From positions 243,149 to 307,148 of the forward strand of contig DYMB01000001.1 in NCBI GenBank assembly GCA_020721805.1: a stretch of 64,000 nucleotides of DNA. Reading direction: 5' to 3'. The stretch comes from Acetofilamentum sp. (lineage in GTDB: Bacteria > Hydrothermota > 32-111). How positions within the stretch are numbered: position 1 is the first letter of the stretch; each line of letters opens with the position of its first letter. The notes under the pieces were generated by a model. That model worked only from the letters and a program-made list of their open reading frames with translations, did no database searches and was not told where the DNA came from. Shown here piece by piece: positions 1,605 through 42,164 of this stretch. Position numbers and translations under genes: made by a program.

Positions 1605-1685
1605 TGCCGGGGAGGGGACTTGAACCCCTATGGGAAGCCCACACGCCCCTCAAACGTGCGCGTCTGCCAGTTTCGCCACCCCGGC
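1605..1685 (-). tRNA. tRNA-Leu (anticodon GAG), type II with long variable arm
   Basis: The reverse complement folds as GCCGGGG acceptor / CCCCGGC, an E. coli Leu-like D-arm (UGGCGAAACUGGCAGACGC), anticodon stem CACGU/GCGUG with loop UUGAGGG (34-36 = GAG, G37), a GGG-CUU-CCC variable hairpin, T-arm AGGGGUUCAAGUCCCCU and discriminator A73. CCA is not encoded. Confidence 0.85.
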
Positions 1686-1689
1686 AGAA

Positions 1690-1762
<73 letters not shown>

Positions 1763-32420: not shown

Positions 32421-33751
32421 ATTTTCTCCTCTTTTATTTTTTTCACTTCGCTTTGAACAACTCCATCACTTAAAATTATATCTATATTTGAATTTATCTT
32501 TATGTTCTTTATTGAGTTTATCGTATTTTTTTGAGCATCCACAACTATCGAATATCCTCTTTTGAGTATCTGGGAAGGGTTTAAATTAACAAGTGAATCT
32601 TTCAACATTTTAAGATCTTTTGTAAGAAGGCTAAATCTATTTTTTAAATCAAGGGTCATCTGATTTTTCATCATAGATATAAAATTTTTCTTTTCCACTA
32701 TTTTTAAAAGAGGGGAGTATTTTAAAATGGTATTCTTCAACAGATCTTTTCTATTTTTATAATCGTTTATTTTTTTGTTTAAAATGCTCTCCATCTCTTC
32801 AAGCAAAAATCCTATTTTTTCCTTTTTTTTGTTTATCGGAACGATTGTGGATATAAAAAATGTTTTTTTCAAACTTGAAAATGTTTGCTTCTTGTTGGTA
32901 ATTTTCTTTATTAAATCCCTTTTGAGTTCAATTTCTGATCTGGTCAAAAAATCAAGAATATCATCAACATTTTTAACTATAATTTCAGCGGCAGCGGAGG
33001 GTGTTGGTGCCCTTAGATCAGATACGAAATCACATATTGTAAAATCTGTCTGATGGCCGACCGCAGATACTACAGGTATTTTTGATTTTGCGATTTCTCT
33101 TGCGAGTCTTTCATCGTTGAACACGAAAAGATCTTCAAAGGATCCACCACCTCTTGCTATTATTATCAGATCAACATTTTTTTTTCTGTTAAAATATTTT
33201 AATCCTTTTATGATACTCTTTTCACTTCCCTCACCCTGCACCGATGCTGGATACAGGTATTTTTTTAAATAGGGTGCCCTTCTTTTTAATATGTTTAAGA
33301 TATCATGTAAAACTGAACCAGTTTGAGAAGTTATAATCCCTATGGATAGAGGGTAGATTGGTAAAGGTTTCTTTCTTTCAGAAGAGAACAATCCTTCTTT
33401 TTCAAGTTTTTCTTTTAGTTTCAAAAATTTTTCATACAGTTCTCCAACACCTGACAATTTTATATCTTCAACTATTATCTGATACTGACCCTGTTTCTCA
33501 TACACCGTAAGATGCCCTTTTATCAAAACTTTATTCCCATCTTTAAAACTTTTATCAATTTTTGTTGATCTCCAGATTATACATTTTATAAGAGAATCTT
33601 CATCTTTTATTGAAAAATAGATATGACCTGATGGACTTTCGCTCCAATTGGTAATTTCACCTGTTATTTTGAAATTGGATGGAAAATTATCCTCTATAAG
33701 GTTTTTTAAAATTTCGGTTATCTGTGTAACCGTGTAAATTTTATCTTCCAT
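32417..33751 (-). CDS. xseA: Exodeoxyribonuclease VII large subunit
   Basis: N-terminal OB fold TVTQITEILKNLIEDNFPSNFKITGEITNW...GHIYFSIKDE and catalytic core IARGGGSFEDL. Length 444 aa. Confidence 0.9.
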   Translation of the reverse strand: MEDKIYTVTQITEILKNLIEDNFPSNFKITGEITNWSESPSGHIYFSIKDEDSLIKCIIWRSTKIDKSFKDGNKVLIKGHLTVYEKQGQYQIIVEDIKLSGVGELYEKFLKLKEKLEKEGLFSSERKKPLPIYPLSIGIITSQTGSVLHDILNILKRRAPYLKKYLYPASVQGEGSEKSIIKGLKYFNRKKNVDLIIIARGGGSFEDLFVFNDERLAREIAKSKIPVVSAVGHQTDFTICDFVSDLRAPTPSAAAEIIVKNVDDILDFLTRSEIELKRDLIKKITNKKQTFSSLKKTFFISTIVPINKKKEKIGFLLEEMESILNKKINDYKNRKDLLKNTILKYSPLLKIVEKKNFISMMKNQMTLDLKNRFSLLTKDLKMLKDSLVNLNPSQILKRGYSIVVDAQKNTINSIKNIKINSNIDIILSDGVVQSEVKKIKEEKI

Positions 33752-34577
33752 ATTCTTTTTTCAAGATCAAAAGATTTTGGAAAAGCGTTGCAACGGTTAC
33801 GGGTCCTATACCTCCTGGAACCGGGGTATAAGCACTTGATAATGGATAGGTATCGCTAAAGATATCTCCAACGATTTTTCCATCATAATAGTTTATCCCA
33901 ACATCTAAAAGTATAGGTTTATTTGTACCTATAAAATCACCTGTTAGAAAGAAGGGTTTCCCAATAGCGGAAACTATTATATCAGCATTTTTTGTAAATG
34001 ATTTTATCTCCTTTGATTTTGAGTGAAGAACAGTCACAGATGCACCGCCATCTCTTTTGGAAAGAAAGAGAAGAGCAAGCGGTTTACCAACTATTTCAGA
34101 TCTTCCCAGTATAACAACATTTTTACCTGTAAAATCTAAATTTTCATACTTTAGAGTCTGTATAACCGCAGATGCTGTCGATGGTGCTATGATGAAATTA
34201 TCGGTTATCAGTTTTCCATAGTTTTTTAGAGTTATACAATCCACATCCTTTTTATAATCGAGTATCTGGGATATTTTTTTAAGATCTATTCTTTCTGGTA
34301 AAGGTTTTTCGATTATTATTCCATCAAGTTCTTTTGAGTTTGAAATATTTTCGATCTCATTTAAAAAATCCTCGTTTGAGATATTCTCATCATAGTTGAA
34401 AAGTTTTATGTTTATAAAATAATCTTTTGCTATTTTGATTTTGGATTTTATATATGAAATTGTTGAAGGGGAGTTGCCAATATAAACTACACCAAGGTTT
34501 GGTTTATATTTTTTAAAATCTTCTAAATTTTTTTCAAGTATCAATTGTGAGATCCTTTTACCATCAATCCGATACAT
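33741..34577 (-). CDS. folD: Bifunctional 5,10-methylene-THF dehydrogenase/cyclohydrolase
   Basis: Motifs VVILGRSEIVGKPLALLF, GASVTVLHSKS and ADIIVSAIGKP. Length 278 aa. Confidence 0.9.
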   Translation of the reverse strand: MYRIDGKRISQLILEKNLEDFKKYKPNLGVVYIGNSPSTISYIKSKIKIAKDYFINIKLFNYDENISNEDFLNEIENISNSKELDGIIIEKPLPERIDLKKISQILDYKKDVDCITLKNYGKLITDNFIIAPSTASAVIQTLKYENLDFTGKNVVILGRSEIVGKPLALLFLSKRDGGASVTVLHSKSKEIKSFTKNADIIVSAIGKPFFLTGDFIGTNKPILLDVGINYYDGKIVGDIFSDTYPLSSAYTPVPGGIGPVTVATLFQNLLILKKEYGR

Positions 34578-35349
34578 ACCTGAATATCCTTTCTATTTTT
34601 ACAGTTTTAAAACTATTTTTATCTATCTGTAAAAAAACGGCTGATAGTATCATATTATTTTTTGCAACTTCTAGCCTTTGTGGTATCTGATAGAGGTTCT
34701 TTTTCAATGCACTTTCTTTTTCAAATCCTATTATCGAGTTGAAACTACCAGTCATACCAACATCGGTTATAAAACCTGTTCCGTTCTCAAGTATTCTTTC
34801 ATCGGAAGTCTGACAATGTGTATGTGTTCCAATAACTGCGGAGACTCTACCATCAAGGAAAAACCCAAAAGATTGTTTTTCTGCGGTAGCTTCAGCATGA
34901 AAATCAACTATCCTTATCATACTGCTATTTTCAGAAAGATATATATCAACAGTTTTAAATGGACAATCAATAGGTTGCATAAATATTCTTCCACACAGAT
35001 TCAAAACTTCAATTTCTATATCGTTACACTTAAATTTTGAAACACCTTTTCCAGGAAGTTCTGAACTATAATTCATAGGCCTTAGTATTCTTGGGTCGGT
35101 TAAAAGTTCAACATATTCTTTATTGTCCCATACATGGTTTCCAGTTGTAATACATCCTATACCCATTGAAAACAAAAAATCTGTTGTTTTTTTAGTTATA
35201 CCAAAACCTCCGGCAATATTTTCTCCATTAGCGATTATGAAATCAGGTTTGTATATTTCCTTTAGATTTTTTATATCCTTTGAAAGAGCGTTTCTTCCAG
35301 TTTTCCCGATAATATCACCTATAAAAAGTATATTTATATTATTTTGCAT
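34564..35349 (-). CDS. ymdB: YmdB-family metallophosphoesterase (2',3'-cyclic-nucleotide phosphodiesterase, TIGR00282)
   Basis: [21 protein letters not shown] and GNHVWD calcineurin-like motifs. Adjacent to rny, as in Bacillus. Confidence 0.8.
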
Positions 35350-36919
35350 AATCTATAGCTCTCGTTTCTCTTATAATAGTTACCTTTATCTGTCCTGGAT
35401 ATTTTAACTCCTGTTCTATTCTTCTTGCTATCTGATGGGATAGTTCTTCAGCTTCAGCATCGGTTATCTGTTCAGGAATAACCATAACCCTTATTTCTCT
35501 TCCAGCCTGTATGGCATAAGCTTTTTCAACACCGTTGAAACTGTTAGCTATTTCCTCGAGTTTTTCGAGTCTTTCTATATAAGCCTCAAGAGTCTCCCTT
35601 CTTGCTCCCGGTCTTGCTCCGGATATCGCATCAGCTGTAGATACGAGAATCGATATCAGGTTATTTGGTTCAACATCTCCATGATGACTTTCGATAGCGT
35701 TTATCACTATCTGATCCTCGCCATATTTTTTTGCAAGTTCTGAACCTATTTTTGTATGGGTTCCTTCAAAATTTTGATCAACCGCTTTTCCTATATCATG
35801 AAGGAGACCAGCCCTTTTCGCAATATAACTGTTTTCAATTTCAAGTTCATCAGCCATCATGGCAGCAAGGTATGCAACCTCTTTGGAATGTTGTAAAACA
35901 TTTTGTCCATAACTTGTTCTATATTTTAACCTTCCTATAAGTTTTATCATCTCCGGATGCATATTGGATATGTTGAGTTCAACAAGTGTTTCTTCACCTA
36001 TATTCTTTATATTCTCTTCCATCTCTTCAAAGGTTTTTTTAACTATCTCTTCAATCCTTGTTGGTTGTATCCTGCCATCGGAGATTAGTTTTATAAGTGA
36101 TAATCTTGCCACCTCTCTCCTTACCGGATCGAATCCGGAGAGTGTAACAGCATCAGGAGTGTCATCTATTATAACTTCAACACCAGTAGAGTTTTCAAAA
36201 GTTCTTATATTCCTTCCTTCCCTTCCTATTATTCTTCCCTTCATTTCCTCATTTGGCAGGTTCACAACGCTTACCGTAGATTCCACTACATGGTCTGTTG
36301 CGGATCTCTGTATGGCGAGTGTTATAATCTCCTTTGCTTCCTTCTGTGCTTTTTGTAAAGTATCCTCTTTTATCTGTTTTATCATATTTGCCGCTTGGAG
36401 TTTTGCTTCGGTTTCAAGATTCTGCATAAGTATTTTTATAGCCTCATCTTTTGACATTTGAGCTATCTGCTCAAGTTTTTTATTCTCTTCTTCTAAAAGT
36501 TTTGTTAATCTTTCATTTTTTGCCTTAACAGTCTTTTCTTTAAGAAAAAGTTCCCTTTCCCTTTGTAAAAGATTGGTTTCCTTTTTAGTTAAGAGTTCAT
36601 TCTTCTTTTCTATATTTTTTTCCCGATCCTCTATCGATTGTTCGGATCTTCTCAATTCGTTTCTTTTTTCTCTCAACTGTTTTTCAAATTGTTCATTTTT
36701 TCTGGCTATCTCCTCTTTGGTTTCAAGTAATGATAACCTTTTTTGTGCTTCAATCTCTCTTTTCGCGTCCTTGAGTATCTTTTTCGATGTTTCATCAGCA
36801 TCCTTCAATTTATTTTTGATACTTATTTTACCAATAAGGTAACCAACAAAATATCCAAGAATGCCAAGGATCAAAGTCAAGAGAGTTCCAATTATAATGA
36901 TCAATAATTTTGGATCCAT
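35339..36919 (-). CDS. rny: Ribonuclease Y
   Basis: N-terminal TM helix, coiled coil, KH domain ([15 protein letters not shown]) and HD domain (LLHDIGKA...HH). Length 526 aa. Confidence 0.9.
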
Positions 36920-36924
36920 AAATT

Positions 36925-37115
36925 TTCTCCTTAAAATAAAATCCCCGCCAATACCGTGTGGATTATTTGCTTGAGCCCTTAAAATAAGGGGGGTATCGTT
37001 TAGACACTTTCACACCAATTCCCAAAAAGGGAATTTTGCTGATAGTGCCATCAGATTCCCAAAACTCAAATGTTGGTTCAGCAAATTATACCATCACGAA
37101 TACAGCAGGGATATA
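36925..37115 (-). ncRNA. ssrS: Candidate 6S RNA (SsrS), ~190 nt, GC-rich structured RNA directly downstream of zapA
   Basis: A 200-nt ORF-free interval with GC content well above the local background. The predicted 5' end AUCCCUGCUGUAUUCGUG pairs with the 3' end CACACGGUAUUGGCGGGGAU as a closing stem. An apical hairpin GGGAAUCUGAU-GGCACU-AUCAGCAAAAUUCCC and asymmetric central bubble strands are present. Synteny matches E. coli zapA-ssrS. Confidence 0.4.
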
Positions 37116-37119
37116 TAAA

Positions 37120-37386
37120 CTATTCTATTTTATCTAAAATTTTATTCAGTTTATTCTCAATCTCTTCATATTTTTTTTGCAGAGTAAAATATTTGTCTAT
37201 TATATTCAAAGATGCTATCACAACGATTTTTTCATATTTCTGTCCTGTATTCTCTTTTGCTATATTTTTTATTTCCTCATTTAAAAAATCTGCAACCTTT
37301 TTGGTATATTCTTCATCGACATCAGTTTTTATGAAAAAATCTTTACCAAAAATATTTAAAGTTATTTCTTTCTGGTCATTCCCCAT
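37120..37386 (-). CDS. zapA: Cell division protein ZapA
   Basis: 88 aa. NIFGKDFFIKTDVDEEYTKKVADFLNEEI...IVVIASLNIIDKY matches the ZapA fold, followed by a C-terminal coiled coil. Confidence 0.75.
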   Translation of the reverse strand: MGNDQKEITLNIFGKDFFIKTDVDEEYTKKVADFLNEEIKNIAKENTGQKYEKIVVIASLNIIDKYFTLQKKYEEIENKLNKILDKIE

Positions 37387-37404
37387 AGTTTATATTCCCT
37401 GTCT

Positions 37405-37587
37405 TCAAAGATCCTCGATTTTTTTCAAAATCTCTTCAAGTTTTTTGATAGCTTCTTTTTCACTCGTTTCTTTTTCTTTTAATTTTTCATTTAAAAGATT
37501 CTTTTCCTTTTCAAGTTCTTTTATCCTTAAATTTGATTTTTCTATATATTCACTCAGTTTTTCAATCTTTTCAAGAAAATTGTTCAT
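37405..37587 (-). CDS. Small coiled-coil protein (ZapB-like / DUF904-like), 60 aa
   Basis: Entirely heptad coiled coil (LEKIEKLSEYIEKSNLRIKELEKEKNLLNEKLKEK), immediately upstream of zapA. Confidence 0.4.
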   Translation of the reverse strand: MNNFLEKIEKLSEYIEKSNLRIKELEKEKNLLNEKLKEKETSEKEAIKKLEEILKKIEDL

Positions 37588-37618
37588 ACATACTCCATTC
37601 TATTATCTTAAAGTATTT

Positions 37619-38305
37619 TCACCTCTTGTCAACATTTAAATTTTCTCTTAATTTTTTAGGAATGTTTTCATTTGTTATCAAAATTTCCTTCTCTGTTGTA
37701 AATAGAGAGGATGCCCCTTTATTCCCATATCCTGAAACGGTCAATCTATAATCATCTAGTTTTATTCTAAGAGAGTTAAAAATGGGAATTTCAGAACAAT
37801 AATATATTGAATCGTTGTTCACTTTTACTGGAAATACTATATAGTTGTCATTGTTTAGATTAAACGATCTCCAGTTTGTCGAATCGACATGATTTATCCA
37901 TATCATTATATTGGATATAGGTGAATCGAAAATAAAATTTCCACCGGGATTTACAAATTTGAGCGGTGTCTCACTGTTATATTGAACTTTAAAAGTATCT
38001 ATTAGATAATTATCCTTTATATTATGGAATGTTTTTATCTTTAAAGTTTCCTGTGAAGTTATATAATCTGTTTCAAGTGAAAAACCATCGGATTTTAGAT
38101 CAAGAAGCAAAAATCTTACATGGAATGAGTCGTAAGGAATAGAATCCTTAACATATTCAACAAACTGCCCTGTGGACAATGGTAATGGGTTAAAAATCCT
38201 AACCTGATTTTTTTTATCTATGCAATTTATAAAAAGCAGCAAAAATAAAAGATAACTAAACCGATTTAGCGATCTTAACAAGTTCTTTAAAAATATCTGG
38301 TTCAT
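37619..38305 (-). CDS. Hypothetical lipoprotein-like secreted protein
   Basis: N-terminal MNQIFLKNLLRSLNRFSYLLFLLLFINC resembles a signal peptide plus lipobox Cys, with a beta-rich body. The start is uncertain and the 5' end overlaps the rplT 3' end by >=24 nt in another frame. Confidence 0.4.
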   Translation of the reverse strand: MNQIFLKNLLRSLNRFSYLLFLLLFINCIDKKNQVRIFNPLPLSTGQFVEYVKDSIPYDSFHVRFLLLDLKSDGFSLETDYITSQETLKIKTFHNIKDNYLIDTFKVQYNSETPLKFVNPGGNFIFDSPISNIMIWINHVDSTNWRSFNLNNDNYIVFPVKVNNDSIYYCSEIPIFNSLRIKLDDYRLTVSGYGNKGASSLFTTEKEILITNENIPKKLRENLNVDKR

Positions 38306-38606
38306 GTATAGCCATCTCTGATAACTGTTTTCTATCAAGAAATATGTTAGATTTTTTCAATCCATTTATAAATTTTGAATATGATATATTGTTATTTCTG
38401 CAAGCTATATTGATCCTTGTTATCCATAATGATCTTGTTTCAGATTTTTTCTTTTTTCTATCCCTGTATGCATAGACCAGAGCTTTTGTTGCTGCAGATC
38501 TTGCTGATTTATATGCGTTTGATTTTTTACCGAAGGAACCTGAACTTCTTTTAATCCATTTTTTTCTTTTTTCTCTAGTTATCTGTGAATTCTTGACTCT
38601 TGTCAT
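38256..38606 (-). CDS. rplT: 50S ribosomal protein L20
   Basis: MTRVKNSQITREKRKKWIKRSSGSFGKKSNAYKSARSA...RDRKKKKS... is a clear L20. Confidence 0.92.
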   Translation of the reverse strand: MTRVKNSQITREKRKKWIKRSSGSFGKKSNAYKSARSAATKALVYAYRDRKKKKSETRSLWITRINIACRNNNISYSKFINGLKKSNIFLDRKQLSEMAIHEPDIFKELVKIAKSV

Positions 38607-38622
38607 CTCTTCCTCCTATGAA

Positions 38623-38817
38623 TTAATTGTGCAATACCATCTTTATAGATTTAACATTGGTTTTATCGACAGTGGTCCCCCTTCTTAATTTTCTTTTTCT
38701 TTTTGAAGTTTTTTTGGTTAATATATGGGACTTATAGGCTCTCTGTCTTTTTATTTTTCCCTTTTTTGTCAATTTAAATCTTTTGGCTACCGTCTTCTTT
38801 GTTTTCAATTTTGGCAT
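38623..38817 (-). CDS. rpmI: 50S ribosomal protein L35
   Basis: [36 protein letters not shown]. The true start is the internal Met of the longer ORF. Confidence 0.9.
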
Positions 38818-39364
38818 TTGTTTCCTCCTGGTTTTTCTTTTTCTTTTGTCCATCCTTTATGAAAGAAAACATCTGAAAAATTCTTCTTCCTTCAATTTTG
38901 GGTTCACTTTCTGGTATAGCGATATCTGATACCATCTTCTTTACCTTTTCAAGTATTTTTGTTCCATCATCTATATGTTGCATTTCTCTACCTCTGAACT
39001 TAACAACGAATCTGACTTTATATTTTTTTTCAAAAAATTTTTTTGCCTGATTGATCTTTATTTCAAGATCATGTTCAAAAATTGAAGGCCTGAATTGAAT
39101 CTCCTTGACCTCAATCTGGTGTAGGTTTTTCTTTGCGTTCTTTTCTTTTTTAGTCAACTCATAGATATATTTCCCAAAATCCATTATTCTTACAACAGGG
39201 GGATTGGCGTTTGGAGCCACCTCTACAAGATCAAGGGATGATTCTTCCGCTTTTTTTAAAGCTTCAGAGATTGGGAGTACGCCAAGTGGTTCTCCATTCT
39301 CTCCTATCAATCTTACCTCTTTTGACTTTATCTGATTGTTTACCCTTACATTCTTTGTATTGAT
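38774..39364 (-). CDS. infC: Translation initiation factor IF-3, probable non-AUG (AUC) start
   Basis: [25 protein letters not shown] aligns to the IF3 N-domain and EGRRIFQM to the C-domain. RBS AAGGAGG (complement of 39371-39377) lies 5 nt upstream of the in-frame AUC at 39364-39362. The ORF-track GTG at 39403 lies upstream of the RBS. The 3' end overlaps rpmI by 44 nt. Confidence 0.8.
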
Positions 39365-39473
39365 ACATACCTCCTTTAAAAAAATAAAAGGTGGCAAAAC
39401 CACCCTTCTTTAATTTTCATTTTTAGCCTCTTTGCTAACGCTTAAGGCGAGAAGCGGTGTTTTGCTTCTTCTT

Positions 39474-41414
39474 TTATAGGTTTTCATAGAAAAGTTTCAA
39501 AAACTCTTCTATACTCTTTTTTCCAACATCACCTTTACCTTTTATCCTAACGCTAACTTTATTTTCATCACTCTCTTTTTTACCTACTATAAGCATAAAA
39601 GGTATATTTTCCTCTTCACATCTTTTTATCTTATTGTTTATCTTTTCGTTTCCATCGTCGATTTTATATCTTATATTCTTTTCATAAAATATTTTACCTA
39701 TATTGTTTGCATAGTCAACAGAATTGTTTGAAATCGTTAAAATAGCTATTTGTACGGGTGAAAGCCATAATGGAAATTTGCCAGCATAATTTTCGATCAA
39801 ACCACCTATAAACCTTTCAAGTGAACCCAACAATGCTCTATGTATCATATAAACATAATGCTCTTTGTTGTCTTTATCAACAAAAGTTACATTGAACCTT
39901 CTTGGAAGGTTAAAATCGAACTGTATAGTTGGTCCCTGCCATTTTCTTCCAATTGCATCTTCAAGTTTTATATCTATTTTTGGTCCGTAGAATACAGCTT
40001 CTCCAGGCATCTCTTTAAATTCAATTCCCTTTTTAAAAAGTATATCTTTTAAACTGTTTTGGGCAAACTCCCATTCTTCTAAAGTACCAGCGTATTTATC
40101 TTTAAAATTGATATCCATCGTTGATAGTTCGACATCAAACTTCTTATAACCAAATTTTTGAATCATAAAAACTGCAAAATCGTATACTTTCTCAATTTCA
40201 TCTTTCAACTGTTGGGGTGTGCAGAATATATGGCCATCATCCTGTGTAAATCCTCTTACTCTTAACAATCCATGTAATGTGCCACTTCTTTCATACCTGT
40301 AGACAGTTCCAAGTTCAGCAAATTTAACTGGAAGATCTTTGTATGAATGTAACTTTGTCTGATAAAGAAGTATATGCAATGGACAATTCATAGGTTTTAA
40401 AACATATTCCTCATCATCTATCTTAAAAATATACATATTCTCCTTGTAAAAATCATAATGCCCAGATGTTTTCCAGAGGTTTGCTTTTGAAATATGTGGA
40501 GTTATAACAAGTTTGTAACCTCTTTTTAAATGTTCATCTTTCCAGAACCTTTCTATTATATCCCTTATGATTCCTCCATTTATGTTCCAGAAAACAAGCC
40601 CAGGACCTGATTGATCGAATATGTTGTAAATGTTTAACTTTTTGCCCAGAATTCTATGATCCCTTTTTGATGCTTCTTCTATTTTGATCAAATGGTTTTC
40701 AAGCATGCTTTTTTCTGGGAAGGATATACCATATATTCTTGTTAGCATCTCTTTCTTTTCATCCCCTCTCCAGTATGCACCAGCAGAGGAGAGTAGTTTG
40801 AAATGTTTTATATAGCCTGTTGATGGGAGATGTGGGCCTCTACATAGATCAACGAATCTATAATCGAACCTCTTTGAATAGTTTTCATAATAGGTTAAAT
40901 TTTCAGATTCTATATTCTCCACAAGTTCAACTTTAAATTTTTCACCCAGTTCTTTATACTTTTTTAAAAGTTCTTCTTTTTTTATTTCAACCCTTTTGAA
41001 TTGAATATTTTCTTGAACAAGTTTTGCCATTATATCTTCTATCTTTGCAATTTCGTTTTCTGAAAATTTGTAATCTATAAATTCAAAATCATAATAGAAT
41101 CCAGATTCTATTGAAGGTCCTATAGCAAGTTTCACATATTTATCATCACCTTTAATTTCTTTTATAAAAATTTTTACAGCCATAGCGAGAAGATGAGATG
41201 TTGAATGCCAGAAAATCTCTCTACCTTTTTGTAAATAAAAATCAACCAGTGTTATGATGGAAGAATCTTCAATCTCTCTAGAAAGATCGAATAAAAAATT
41301 ATTCTTCTCAAAAGCGAAAAAATTCTCTGCTGAAAAATCTTTTGAATCTTTTAAATAATCCAGACAGGAATATCCTTTTTTATAATCGAAATCTTTACCG
41401 TTAATTTTTATCAT
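39474..41414 (-). CDS. thrS: Threonyl-tRNA synthetase
   Basis: TGS domain (MIKINGKDFDYKKG), class II core (HRALLGSLERFIG; motif 3) and anticodon-binding domain. The ORF-track start at 41474 would overlap tRNA-Val, so the Met at 41414 is preferred. Confidence 0.9.
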   Translation of the reverse strand: MIKINGKDFDYKKGYSCLDYLKDSKDFSAENFFAFEKNNFLFDLSREIEDSSIITLVDFYLQKGREIFWHSTSHLLAMAVKIFIKEIKGDDKYVKLAIGPSIESGFYYDFEFIDYKFSENEIAKIEDIMAKLVQENIQFKRVEIKKEELLKKYKELGEKFKVELVENIESENLTYYENYSKRFDYRFVDLCRGPHLPSTGYIKHFKLLSSAGAYWRGDEKKEMLTRIYGISFPEKSMLENHLIKIEEASKRDHRILGKKLNIYNIFDQSGPGLVFWNINGGIIRDIIERFWKDEHLKRGYKLVITPHISKANLWKTSGHYDFYKENMYIFKIDDEEYVLKPMNCPLHILLYQTKLHSYKDLPVKFAELGTVYRYERSGTLHGLLRVRGFTQDDGHIFCTPQQLKDEIEKVYDFAVFMIQKFGYKKFDVELSTMDINFKDKYAGTLEEWEFAQNSLKDILFKKGIEFKEMPGEAVFYGPKIDIKLEDAIGRKWQGPTIQFDFNLPRRFNVTFVDKDNKEHYVYMIHRALLGSLERFIGGLIENYAGKFPLWLSPVQIAILTISNNSVDYANNIGKIFYEKNIRYKIDDGNEKINNKIKRCEEENIPFMLIVGKKESDENKVSVRIKGKGDVGKKSIEEFLKLFYENL

Positions 41415-41428
41415 ACAATTTATAACAT

Positions 41429-41502
41429 TGGGCGGTACTGGAGTCGAACCAGTGACCTCTTGCATGTCAAGCAAGCACTCTGACCATCTGAGCTAACCGC
41501 CC
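41429..41502 (-). tRNA. tRNA-Val (anticodon GAC)
   Basis: Reverse complement GGGCGGUUAGCUCAGAUGGUCAGAGUGCUUGCUUGACAUGCAAGAGGUCACUGGUUCGACUCCAGUACCGCCCA; anticodon loop UUGACAU. Confidence 0.9.
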
Positions 41503-41504
41503 CT

Positions 41505-41576
41505 CGTCTCCAACGGGAGTTGAACCCGTGTCGCAGCCTTGAAAGAGCTGTGTCCTAACCACTGGACGATGGAGAC
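41505..41576 (-). tRNA. tRNA-Glu (anticodon UUC)
   Basis: Reverse complement GUCUCCAUCGUCCAGUGGUUAGGACACAGCUCUUUCAAGGCUGCGACACGGGUUCAACUCCCGUUGGAGACG; anticodon loop CUUUCAA. Confidence 0.88.
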
Positions 41577-42091: not shown

Positions 42092-42164
42092 TGAGCCGTA
42101 CTGGATTCGAACCAGTGACCCCCTGCTTAAAAGGCAGATGCTCTACCTACTGAGCTAACGGCCC
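42092..42164 (-). tRNA. tRNA-Lys (anticodon UUU)
   Basis: Reverse complement GGGCCGUUAGCUCAGUAGGUAGAGCAUCUGCCUUUUAAGCAGGGGGUCACUGGUUCGAAUCCAGUACGGCUCA; G2-U71 wobble, anticodon loop CUUUUAA. Confidence 0.88.

Follow-up and report, generated by a model that had tools for sequence, protein, structure and literature searches.

The gap between zapA and rny, on the minus strand of the window (by which we mean the whole 64,000-nucleotide stretch of DNA analyzed), raises the question of whether it encodes a free-standing structured RNA, and whether that RNA is the 6S (SsrS) RNA that the initial annotation had proposed there. From the zapA stop codon (TAG, 37122–37120) to the rny start codon (ATG, 36919–36917), the gap corresponds exactly to positions 36920–37119. 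Both flanking gene assignments hold up on comparison with Pfam, and the immediate gene context is as follows:

37405–37587, minus strand: 60-residue coiled-coil ORF, directly upstream of zapA, in the position occupied by ZapB in other lineages
37120–37386, minus strand: zapA, 88 residues, PF05164 (E = 2.3e-16)
35339–36919, minus strand: rny (RNase Y, 526 residues), RNase_Y_N (E = 7e-49), plus KH and HD domains
34564–35349, minus strand: ymdB-like phosphoesterase gene, PF13277 YmdB (E = 8e-100), sharing 11 nt with the end of rny

A folD gene (THF dehydrogenase/cyclohydrolase) follows ymdB with a 14-nt overlap in the rny-ymdB-folD stretch (33741–35349, minus strand). The GC content of the gap had been described as visibly above the background; the excess is real, though modest (37.5% for the gap and 40.7% for the 177-nt RNA described below, compared with 31.9% for the window, 24.3% for zapA, and 35.7% for rny), and ~6% of 177-nt windows equal or exceed the RNA in this respect. 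The claim that the gap contains no ORF is correct for the minus strand, on which no ORF of at least 40 residues was found, but not for the plus strand, where a 189-residue mechanical ORF (37070–37639) begins inside the gap and runs antisense to zapA; it is taken to be a shadow ORF.

A search of the entire window with the Rfam 15 models, each at its gathering threshold, returned five tRNA genes and one match to the 6S RNA model RF00013, and nothing else. The RF00013 comparison, which had itself been suggested as a check, gave a score of 70.6 bits (gathering score 46.4 bits, E = 6.4e-12) over model positions 1–187 of 187, on the strand and at the coordinates predicted:

36938–37114, minus strand: 6S/SsrS RNA gene, 177 nt, full-length RF00013 match (RNA nucleotide n is coordinate 37115 − n)

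The 6S-Flavo model (RF01685), at its own gathering score of 85 bits, has no match in the window. The 177-nt RNA has a minimum free energy (MFE) of −65.4 kcal/mol, compared with −41.4 ± 3.8 kcal/mol for 200 dinucleotide shuffles (z = −6.26), none of which folds as well (0/200). Its length lies within the range expected of 6S RNAs (~160–200 nt), and a rod is obtained in the MFE, centroid, and alifold structures and in the folds of homologues. We assign the interval 36920–37119, with a probability of roughly 0.93, to a 6S (SsrS) RNA of a low-GC WOR-3-clade bacterium. The gene is an ordinary member of a well-known family, because the public Rfam model detects it, as standard Rfam-based annotation would. 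The assignment has little significance beyond correct annotation, i.e. showing that an uncultured WOR-3-clade lineage of low GC content has a canonical 6S RNA; the earlier reading does illustrate that a 6S RNA can be recognized from sequence and synteny alone.

The RNase Y proteins most closely related to that of the window (78–87% identity) are encoded by eight metagenome-assembled genomes (MAGs) labelled candidate division WOR-3, 'TA06 32_111' or 'bacterium', and an RF00013 match (58–74 bits) lies just upstream of rny in all eight. Five more contigs came from metagenomes scanned for two invariant blocks of the RNA. The RNA lies between zapA and rny in 8/8 of the related genomes, and metagenomes supply three more distinct sequences with the same arrangement; the comparison set used below comprises 11 distinct sequences drawn from genome loci, metagenome contigs and the window, the window sequence being unique in the set. 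One related locus, L004, appeared to lack the RNA, having been missed in multi-locus Rfam scans both at the gathering score and at E ≤ 0.05. This absence was a filter artefact: a search of 351 nt recovered the match (58.4 bits, at 2796–2972 of the locus), which shows that Rfam speed filters can drop true matches in AT-rich sequence. The same locus has, further upstream, a sub-threshold match at 421–522 to the ribosomal protein L20 leader (RF00558, 42.9 bits compared with a gathering score of 58.7).

The blocks that are invariant among the 11 homologues are AUCCCUGC, UUUGCUGAACCAACA, AAGGG, UCA, GCAAAU, CACACGGU, and GCGGGGAUUUU. The pattern of conservation is RNA-like, with invariant single-stranded or bubble-flanking blocks alternating with variable, compensating stems; the neighboring zapA, by contrast, shows third-codon-position wobble. 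That the gap might be no more than a GC-rich spacer with a fortuitous fold and no RNA function would be in keeping with the modest GC excess and with the ~6% of windows that are as GC-rich. The Rfam E value of 6e-12, the failure of any of 200 shuffles to fold as well, and the retention of invariant blocks and compensatory changes at RNase Y identities of 78–87%, where zapA wobbles, reduce the likelihood of such a coincidence to a negligible level.

The 177-nt RNA folds as a canonical 6S rod, with a GC-rich closing stem, a short helix, a large bubble, and a long apical stem. Its elements are, in order along the RNA:

37095–37112, minus strand: closing stem, 5′ arm, nt 3–20, AUCCCUGCUG...UCGUG, pairing with nt 157–174
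37071–37085, minus strand: invariant block UUUGCUGAACCAACA, nt 30–44, predicted product-RNA template and 5′ arm of the bubble-flanking helix
37061–37074, minus strand: central bubble, 5′ strand, nt 41–54, AACAUUUGAGUUUU, unpaired in the Rfam and alifold consensus
36991–37060, minus strand: apical stem, nt 55–124
37017–37035, minus strand: terminal hairpin AUUCCC-UUUUU-GGGAAU, nt 80–98
36976–36990, minus strand: central bubble, 3′ strand, hairpin CCCUUA-UUU-UAAGGG, nt 125–139, in the MFE structure
36966–36977, minus strand: bubble-flanking helix, 3′ arm, nt 138–149, GGCUCAAGCAAA
36941–36958, minus strand: closing stem, 3′ arm, nt 157–174, CACGG...UGGCGGGGAU

The complementarity of the two ends, described in the original proposal, is genuine: AUCCCUGC (nt 3–10) pairs with GCGGGGAU (nt 167–174), and the CGUG (nt 17–20)/CACG (nt 157–160) extension pairs as well. 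Across the 11 sequences, helices 1 and 2 of the closing stem are 96–97% paired, with changes on both sides at two pairs. The bubble-flanking helix (helix 3), in which UUUGCUGAACC pairs with GGCUCAAGCAAA, consists of 10 pairs, all invariant and 100% paired; because it never varies, it is uninformative for or against structure. The central bubble has strands of 14 nt and 13 nt. The CCCUUA-UUU-UAAGGG hairpin of its 3′ strand shares the GGG with the bubble-flanking helix, such that the two compete, and the pairing potential of the hairpin is largely kept in the homologues; the modelled structures have the potential for a helix plus a competing 3′-strand hairpin, as a 6S RNA requires. At the base of the apical stem, helix 4 (GGGAAUC, nt 55–61, with GAUACCC, nt 118–124) is 100% paired and has two compensatory pairs. 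Apical helices 5 and 6 are 71–77% paired in the MAFFT alignment of the 11 sequences; this lower pairing is probably due in part to misalignment between two subclades, and when folded independently 11/11 sequences gave the same rod.

Two further pairings were rejected. The apical hairpin of the initial annotation (GGGAAU/AUUCCC with an inner CUGAU/AUCAG) can be drawn for the window sequence but is not a conserved fold, since only 67% of its cells are paired in the 11 homologues, no more than in shuffles. In the supported fold GGGAAUC has GAUACCC as its partner, and AUUCCC pairs instead with the GGGAAU that follows it, in the terminal hairpin. An extra internal-loop helix (nt 22–29/150–156) occurs in the MFE structure of the window RNA, and its register is not kept in the homologues.

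Covariation had also been put forward as a check, and the homologue alignment does contain compensatory changes in the 6S rod. In the 11-sequence alignment 90% of the cells of the canonical fold are paired, compared with 86% for shuffles and 33–49% for slid partners. Nine pairs are changed on both sides (6/500 shuffles reach nine), and the covariation score of 0.171 is reached by 0/500 shuffles, values that derive from only 11 closely related sequences in which 24/47 pairs never vary. The compensatory changes are located in three places: the outer closing stem, the GGGAAUC/GAUACCC helix, and the mid-portion of the apical stem. No covariation signal comes from the bubble-flanking helix or from most of the closing stem, because these pairs are invariant in the clade.

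Comparison of E. coli K-12 ssrS with RF00013 (139.8 bits) places its nt 44 at model position 45, which corresponds to C43 (37072) of the window RNA. We take U44 of E. coli 6S RNA to be the pRNA start site. The block aligned to the U44 region is invariant in all 11 distinct homologues, and by analogy the invariant UUUGCUGAACCAAC is predicted to be the product-RNA template, giving a product that would begin 5′-GUUGGUUCAGCAAA. If the RNA acts as do the 6S RNAs of E. coli and B. subtilis, its bubble would mimic an open promoter, and the RNA would fill the active site of the housekeeping sigma-RNA polymerase holoenzyme and dampen transcription as growth slowed. During outgrowth the 6S RNA would serve the polymerase as a template, with synthesis starting opposite C43 (37072). 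Synthesis of the product RNA would then unzip the flanking helix, allowing the CCCUUA...UAAGGG hairpin to form and the polymerase to be released.

The position of the element immediately ahead of rny permits a different reading, namely that it acts in cis as the 5′ leader of rny mRNA, for instance as an autoregulatory target of RNase Y or as a stability element, and is no free-standing RNA. The element directly adjoins the rny ribosome-binding site, without an intervening terminator, and 6S RNA and rny are neighbors in WOR-3, Calditrichia, and Flavobacteriaceae alike. However, the element matches a trans-acting RNA family over its full length and above threshold; a whole gene, ygfA, lies between the homologous RNA and rny in three other loci (L023, L052, and L069, see below); E. 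coli ssrS has no adjacent rny; and the strongest conservation is found in the bubble/template region, not beside the ribosome-binding site. A leader function in place of a 6S function is very unlikely on this evidence. Because there is no terminator between the 6S gene and rny, rny must nonetheless be transcribed through the 6S gene, and the origin of the 6S RNA has to be considered together with the transcription of its neighbors. The elements concerned are:

37605–37632, minus strand: candidate operon promoter, TTGACA, 16-nt spacer, TAAGAT (10/12 matches in the promoter scan)
36927–36941, minus strand: 3′ tail UUUUAUUUU, then the rny ribosome-binding site AAGGAG (36932–36927)

The spacing on both sides of the RNA is tight. 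The zapA stop codon is 5 nt ahead of the 6S 5′ end, the AAGGAG of rny begins 5 nt past the modelled 3′ end, and the rny start codon follows 18 nt past that end. A terminator scan of the minus strand found no terminator-like site, and there is no separate terminator hairpin at the 6S 3′ end. The sequence GGGGAUUUU is invariant in the homologues, and the invariant U-run past the closing stem could cause partial termination. The candidate promoter at 37605–37632, of near-consensus sigma-70 type, overlaps the 3′ end of a 239-residue gene and lies upstream of the 60-residue (ZapB-like, see below) ORF. A block consisting of CTTGACAA...TAnnAT...GGAG, then ATG, is conserved there in 9/9 relatives, with an invariant −35 hexamer (alignment A3, columns 57–100); this TTGACA/TAnnAT pair is the only conserved promoter-like element. 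In the 3′ region of zapA no conserved −35/−10 pair was found, and third-codon-position variation is ordinary. Two other promoter candidates were discarded. Within zapA, the scan gave only a 9/12 site (37199–37170), where the alignment shows ordinary codon wobble; a TATAAT inside the 6S gene (nt 24–29), considered as a conserved rny promoter, occurs in the window only and is absent from the relatives.

The possibility that a true 6S RNA is made from a promoter of its own, with a −10 element TAGAAT (37127–37122) over the 3′ end of zapA, has also to be weighed; the RNA would in that case be a primary transcript, some transcription terminating at the U-run and the rest reading through to rny. The homologues have a weak −10-like hexamer (TAGAAT, TAAAAT or TTAAAT) that ends ~7–8 nt short of the RNA 5′ end; the 6-nt GTTTAT spacer does not vary despite being non-coding, and GGGGAUUUU is likewise invariant. 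Against this, the −35 is poor (CTGAAT or CTTAAC, 2–3/6) and no more conserved than coding requires, the promoter scan did not report 37127–37122, and the hexamer falls under the constraint of the final zapA codons and stop codon, and its key A at position 2 is lost in two loci (L001 and L009). Moreover, the closing stem encloses ~160 nt, unlike a typical terminator hairpin. An RNA with its own proximal promoter is possible but unlikely.

The tight spacing and the lack of a conserved promoter or terminator of its own imply instead that the 6S RNA is probably processed from an operon transcript initiated at the conserved promoter ahead of the ZapB-like ORF. In such a scheme one transcript from the TTGACA/TAnnAT promoter would carry zapB-like, zapA, 6S, rny, ymdB, and perhaps folD, and ribonucleases would excise the 6S RNA, leaving an rny mRNA with a very short leader. 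Processing of an ssrS-ygfA transcript in E. coli offers a comparison (PMC7641849, citing Kim & Lee 2004 and Chae et al. 2011). A stronger version, in which the 6S gene is obligately embedded in an ancient zapB-like, zapA, 6S, (ygfA), rny, ymdB array and RNase Y releases the RNA, seems improbable as a whole; that release depends on RNase Y may be so, and is speculative. If correct, it would mean that one transcript couples an RNA that sequesters polymerase, the proteins of the Z-ring, and the principal nuclease of RNA decay, and that excision of the 6S RNA also sets the 5′ end, hence the stability, of the rny mRNA. Detection of only a continuous zapA-rny transcript had been named as a result that would speak against a 6S RNA. 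This is not a valid criterion, because a 6S RNA without its own conserved promoter or terminator is probably processed from such a transcript; the discriminating question is whether a discrete, stable species of ~177 nt accumulates.

The initial annotation had drawn attention to the same gene order in E. coli, and this comparison is sound, ssrS of strain K-12 lying 41 nt downstream of zapA. In the window zapA is likewise upstream of the 6S gene, the downstream ygfA is absent, and rny follows directly. RF00013 and 6S-Flavo matches next to rny or one gene away from it were found in the following loci, with positions given within each:

L023 1912–2090, L052 494–690, L069 1070–1247: RF00013 matches (60–78 bits) in Deltaproteobacteria and Thermodesulfobacteriota MAGs
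L050 2058–2995: Calditrichia MAG, with pheT, a coiled-coil ORF, a ZapA-like ORF, 6S, and rny; RF00013 score 45.7 bits, under the 46.4 threshold
L078 2838–2945, L066 2113–2221: Flavobacteriaceae, 6S-Flavo RF01685 (~108 bits), directly upstream of rny

In L023, L052, and L069, ZapA is followed by 6S, 5-formyl-THF cyclo-ligase (ygfA), and RNase Y, in that order, with ZapB ahead in L023 and L069; this arrangement bridges the proteobacterial zapA-ssrS-ygfA and the WOR-3 zapA-ssrS-rny arrays. In the Calditrichia locus the ZapA-like ORF was recognized by visual inspection of its sequence; the 6S candidate there is probably genuine and missed by the curated threshold. In L078, the Flavobacteriaceae locus in which ORFs were checked, ZapB-like and ZapA ORFs are followed by 6S-Flavo and rny, which suggests that 6S-Flavo is a positional counterpart of 6S RNA. 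The 60-residue ORF of the window gave no significant ZapB match against Pfam, only weak coiled-coil matches. ORFs in the same position match ZapB (PF06005, cut-off 31.5 bits) above the cut-off in L069 (43.0 bits, E = 6.5e-11) and below it in L023 (27.8 bits, E = 3.6e-06) and L078 (20.5 bits, E = 6.9e-04); the window ORF is probably a divergent ZapB-like protein. No 6S match was found near rny in ~45 Clostridia and Treponema loci, nor within 3 kb upstream of rny in L008 (Hydrothermales), where a large ORF overlaps the rny start.

A ZapB-ZapA-SsrS-(FAU1/YgfA) array has been described for the beta- and gamma-proteobacteria (PMC7641849), and adjacency of ygfA and 6S RNA for several proteobacterial classes and Firmicutes (PMC9130861); none of the papers searched mentions 6S RNA together with WOR-3. 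The loci described here extend the zapA-6S link of beta- and gamma-proteobacteria to distant phyla, a modest comparative observation, and show that in several distant phyla rny adjoins the 6S gene or stands one gene further on. A folate enzyme gene, folD, is present in the same apparent operon of the window although ygfA is absent, which may be coincidence.

The closest well-known counterpart is E. coli ssrS. Both RNAs match RF00013 over its full length and have a closing stem, a bubble-flanking helix, a central bubble, a 3′-strand hairpin, and an apical stem; in the Rfam alignment CCCUUA-UUU-UAAGGG of the window aligns with the hairpin region CCUUGAACCAAGG of E. coli. Both genes also lie immediately after zapA and before a co-directional protein gene, consistent with read-through. 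The window RNA differs in being shorter and less GC-rich (177 nt and 41% GC, compared with 183 nt and 55% GC in E. coli) and in scoring 70.6 as opposed to 139.8 bits. The downstream gene is rny in the window and fau/ygfA in E. coli. The distance from zapA is 5 nt in the window, compared with 41 nt, such that there is no room for an intergenic promoter, and the first nucleotide of the predicted product RNA would be G (opposite C43), compared with A in E. coli. Relative to the ZapB-ZapA-SsrS-(FAU1/YgfA) array (PMC7641849), the window shares a small coiled-coil protein, ZapA, and 6S RNA, all co-directional. In contrast to that array, it has neither ygfA nor an EVE-domain gene, RNase Y and YmdB being present instead; it belongs to the WOR-3 clade, not to Proteobacteria; and its coiled-coil ORF is below Pfam significance for ZapB.

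6S-Flavo of Bacteroidota, regarded by its discoverers as performing the 6S function (PMC2864571), occupies in L078 the same zapA-rny slot as the window 6S RNA, but is described by a separate and much shorter model (108 positions), whereas the window RNA matches RF00013. With respect to B. subtilis 6S-1/6S-2 (bsrA, bsrB), a shared feature is that both organisms use RNase Y, not RNase E. Maturation of the B. subtilis 6S RNAs involves 5′ trimming and 3′ exonucleolytic trimming, with RNase J1 as the key processing enzyme and no specific role assignable to RNase Y (PMC10578484, compared here for 6S processing and decay only).

In many Clostridia/Eubacterium loci, an opposite-strand T-box leader that belongs to the divergent gene is located just upstream of rny:

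~2460–2750 (579–778 in L033), minus strand: T-box leader, RF00230 (93–105 bits), in L011, L013, L019, L020, L024, L026–L028, L030, L032–L034, L036, and L067

The remaining features on the upstream side of the window locus, and the tRNA genes, are:

37619–38338, minus strand: 239-residue ORF between rplT and the ZapB-like ORF, without a Pfam match (E up to 10)
38256–41474, minus strand: upstream ORFs
41429–41576, 42092–42164, and 1605–1762, minus strand: tRNA genes

The 239-residue ORF sits where the arrangement in L050 predicts pheS and pheT. Judged by their sequences alone, the ORFs further upstream are putative rplT, rpmI, infC, and thrS genes. Because these mechanical ORFs overlap (putative rpmI with infC, and putative thrS with the tRNA at 41429–41502), their true start codons are probably further in.
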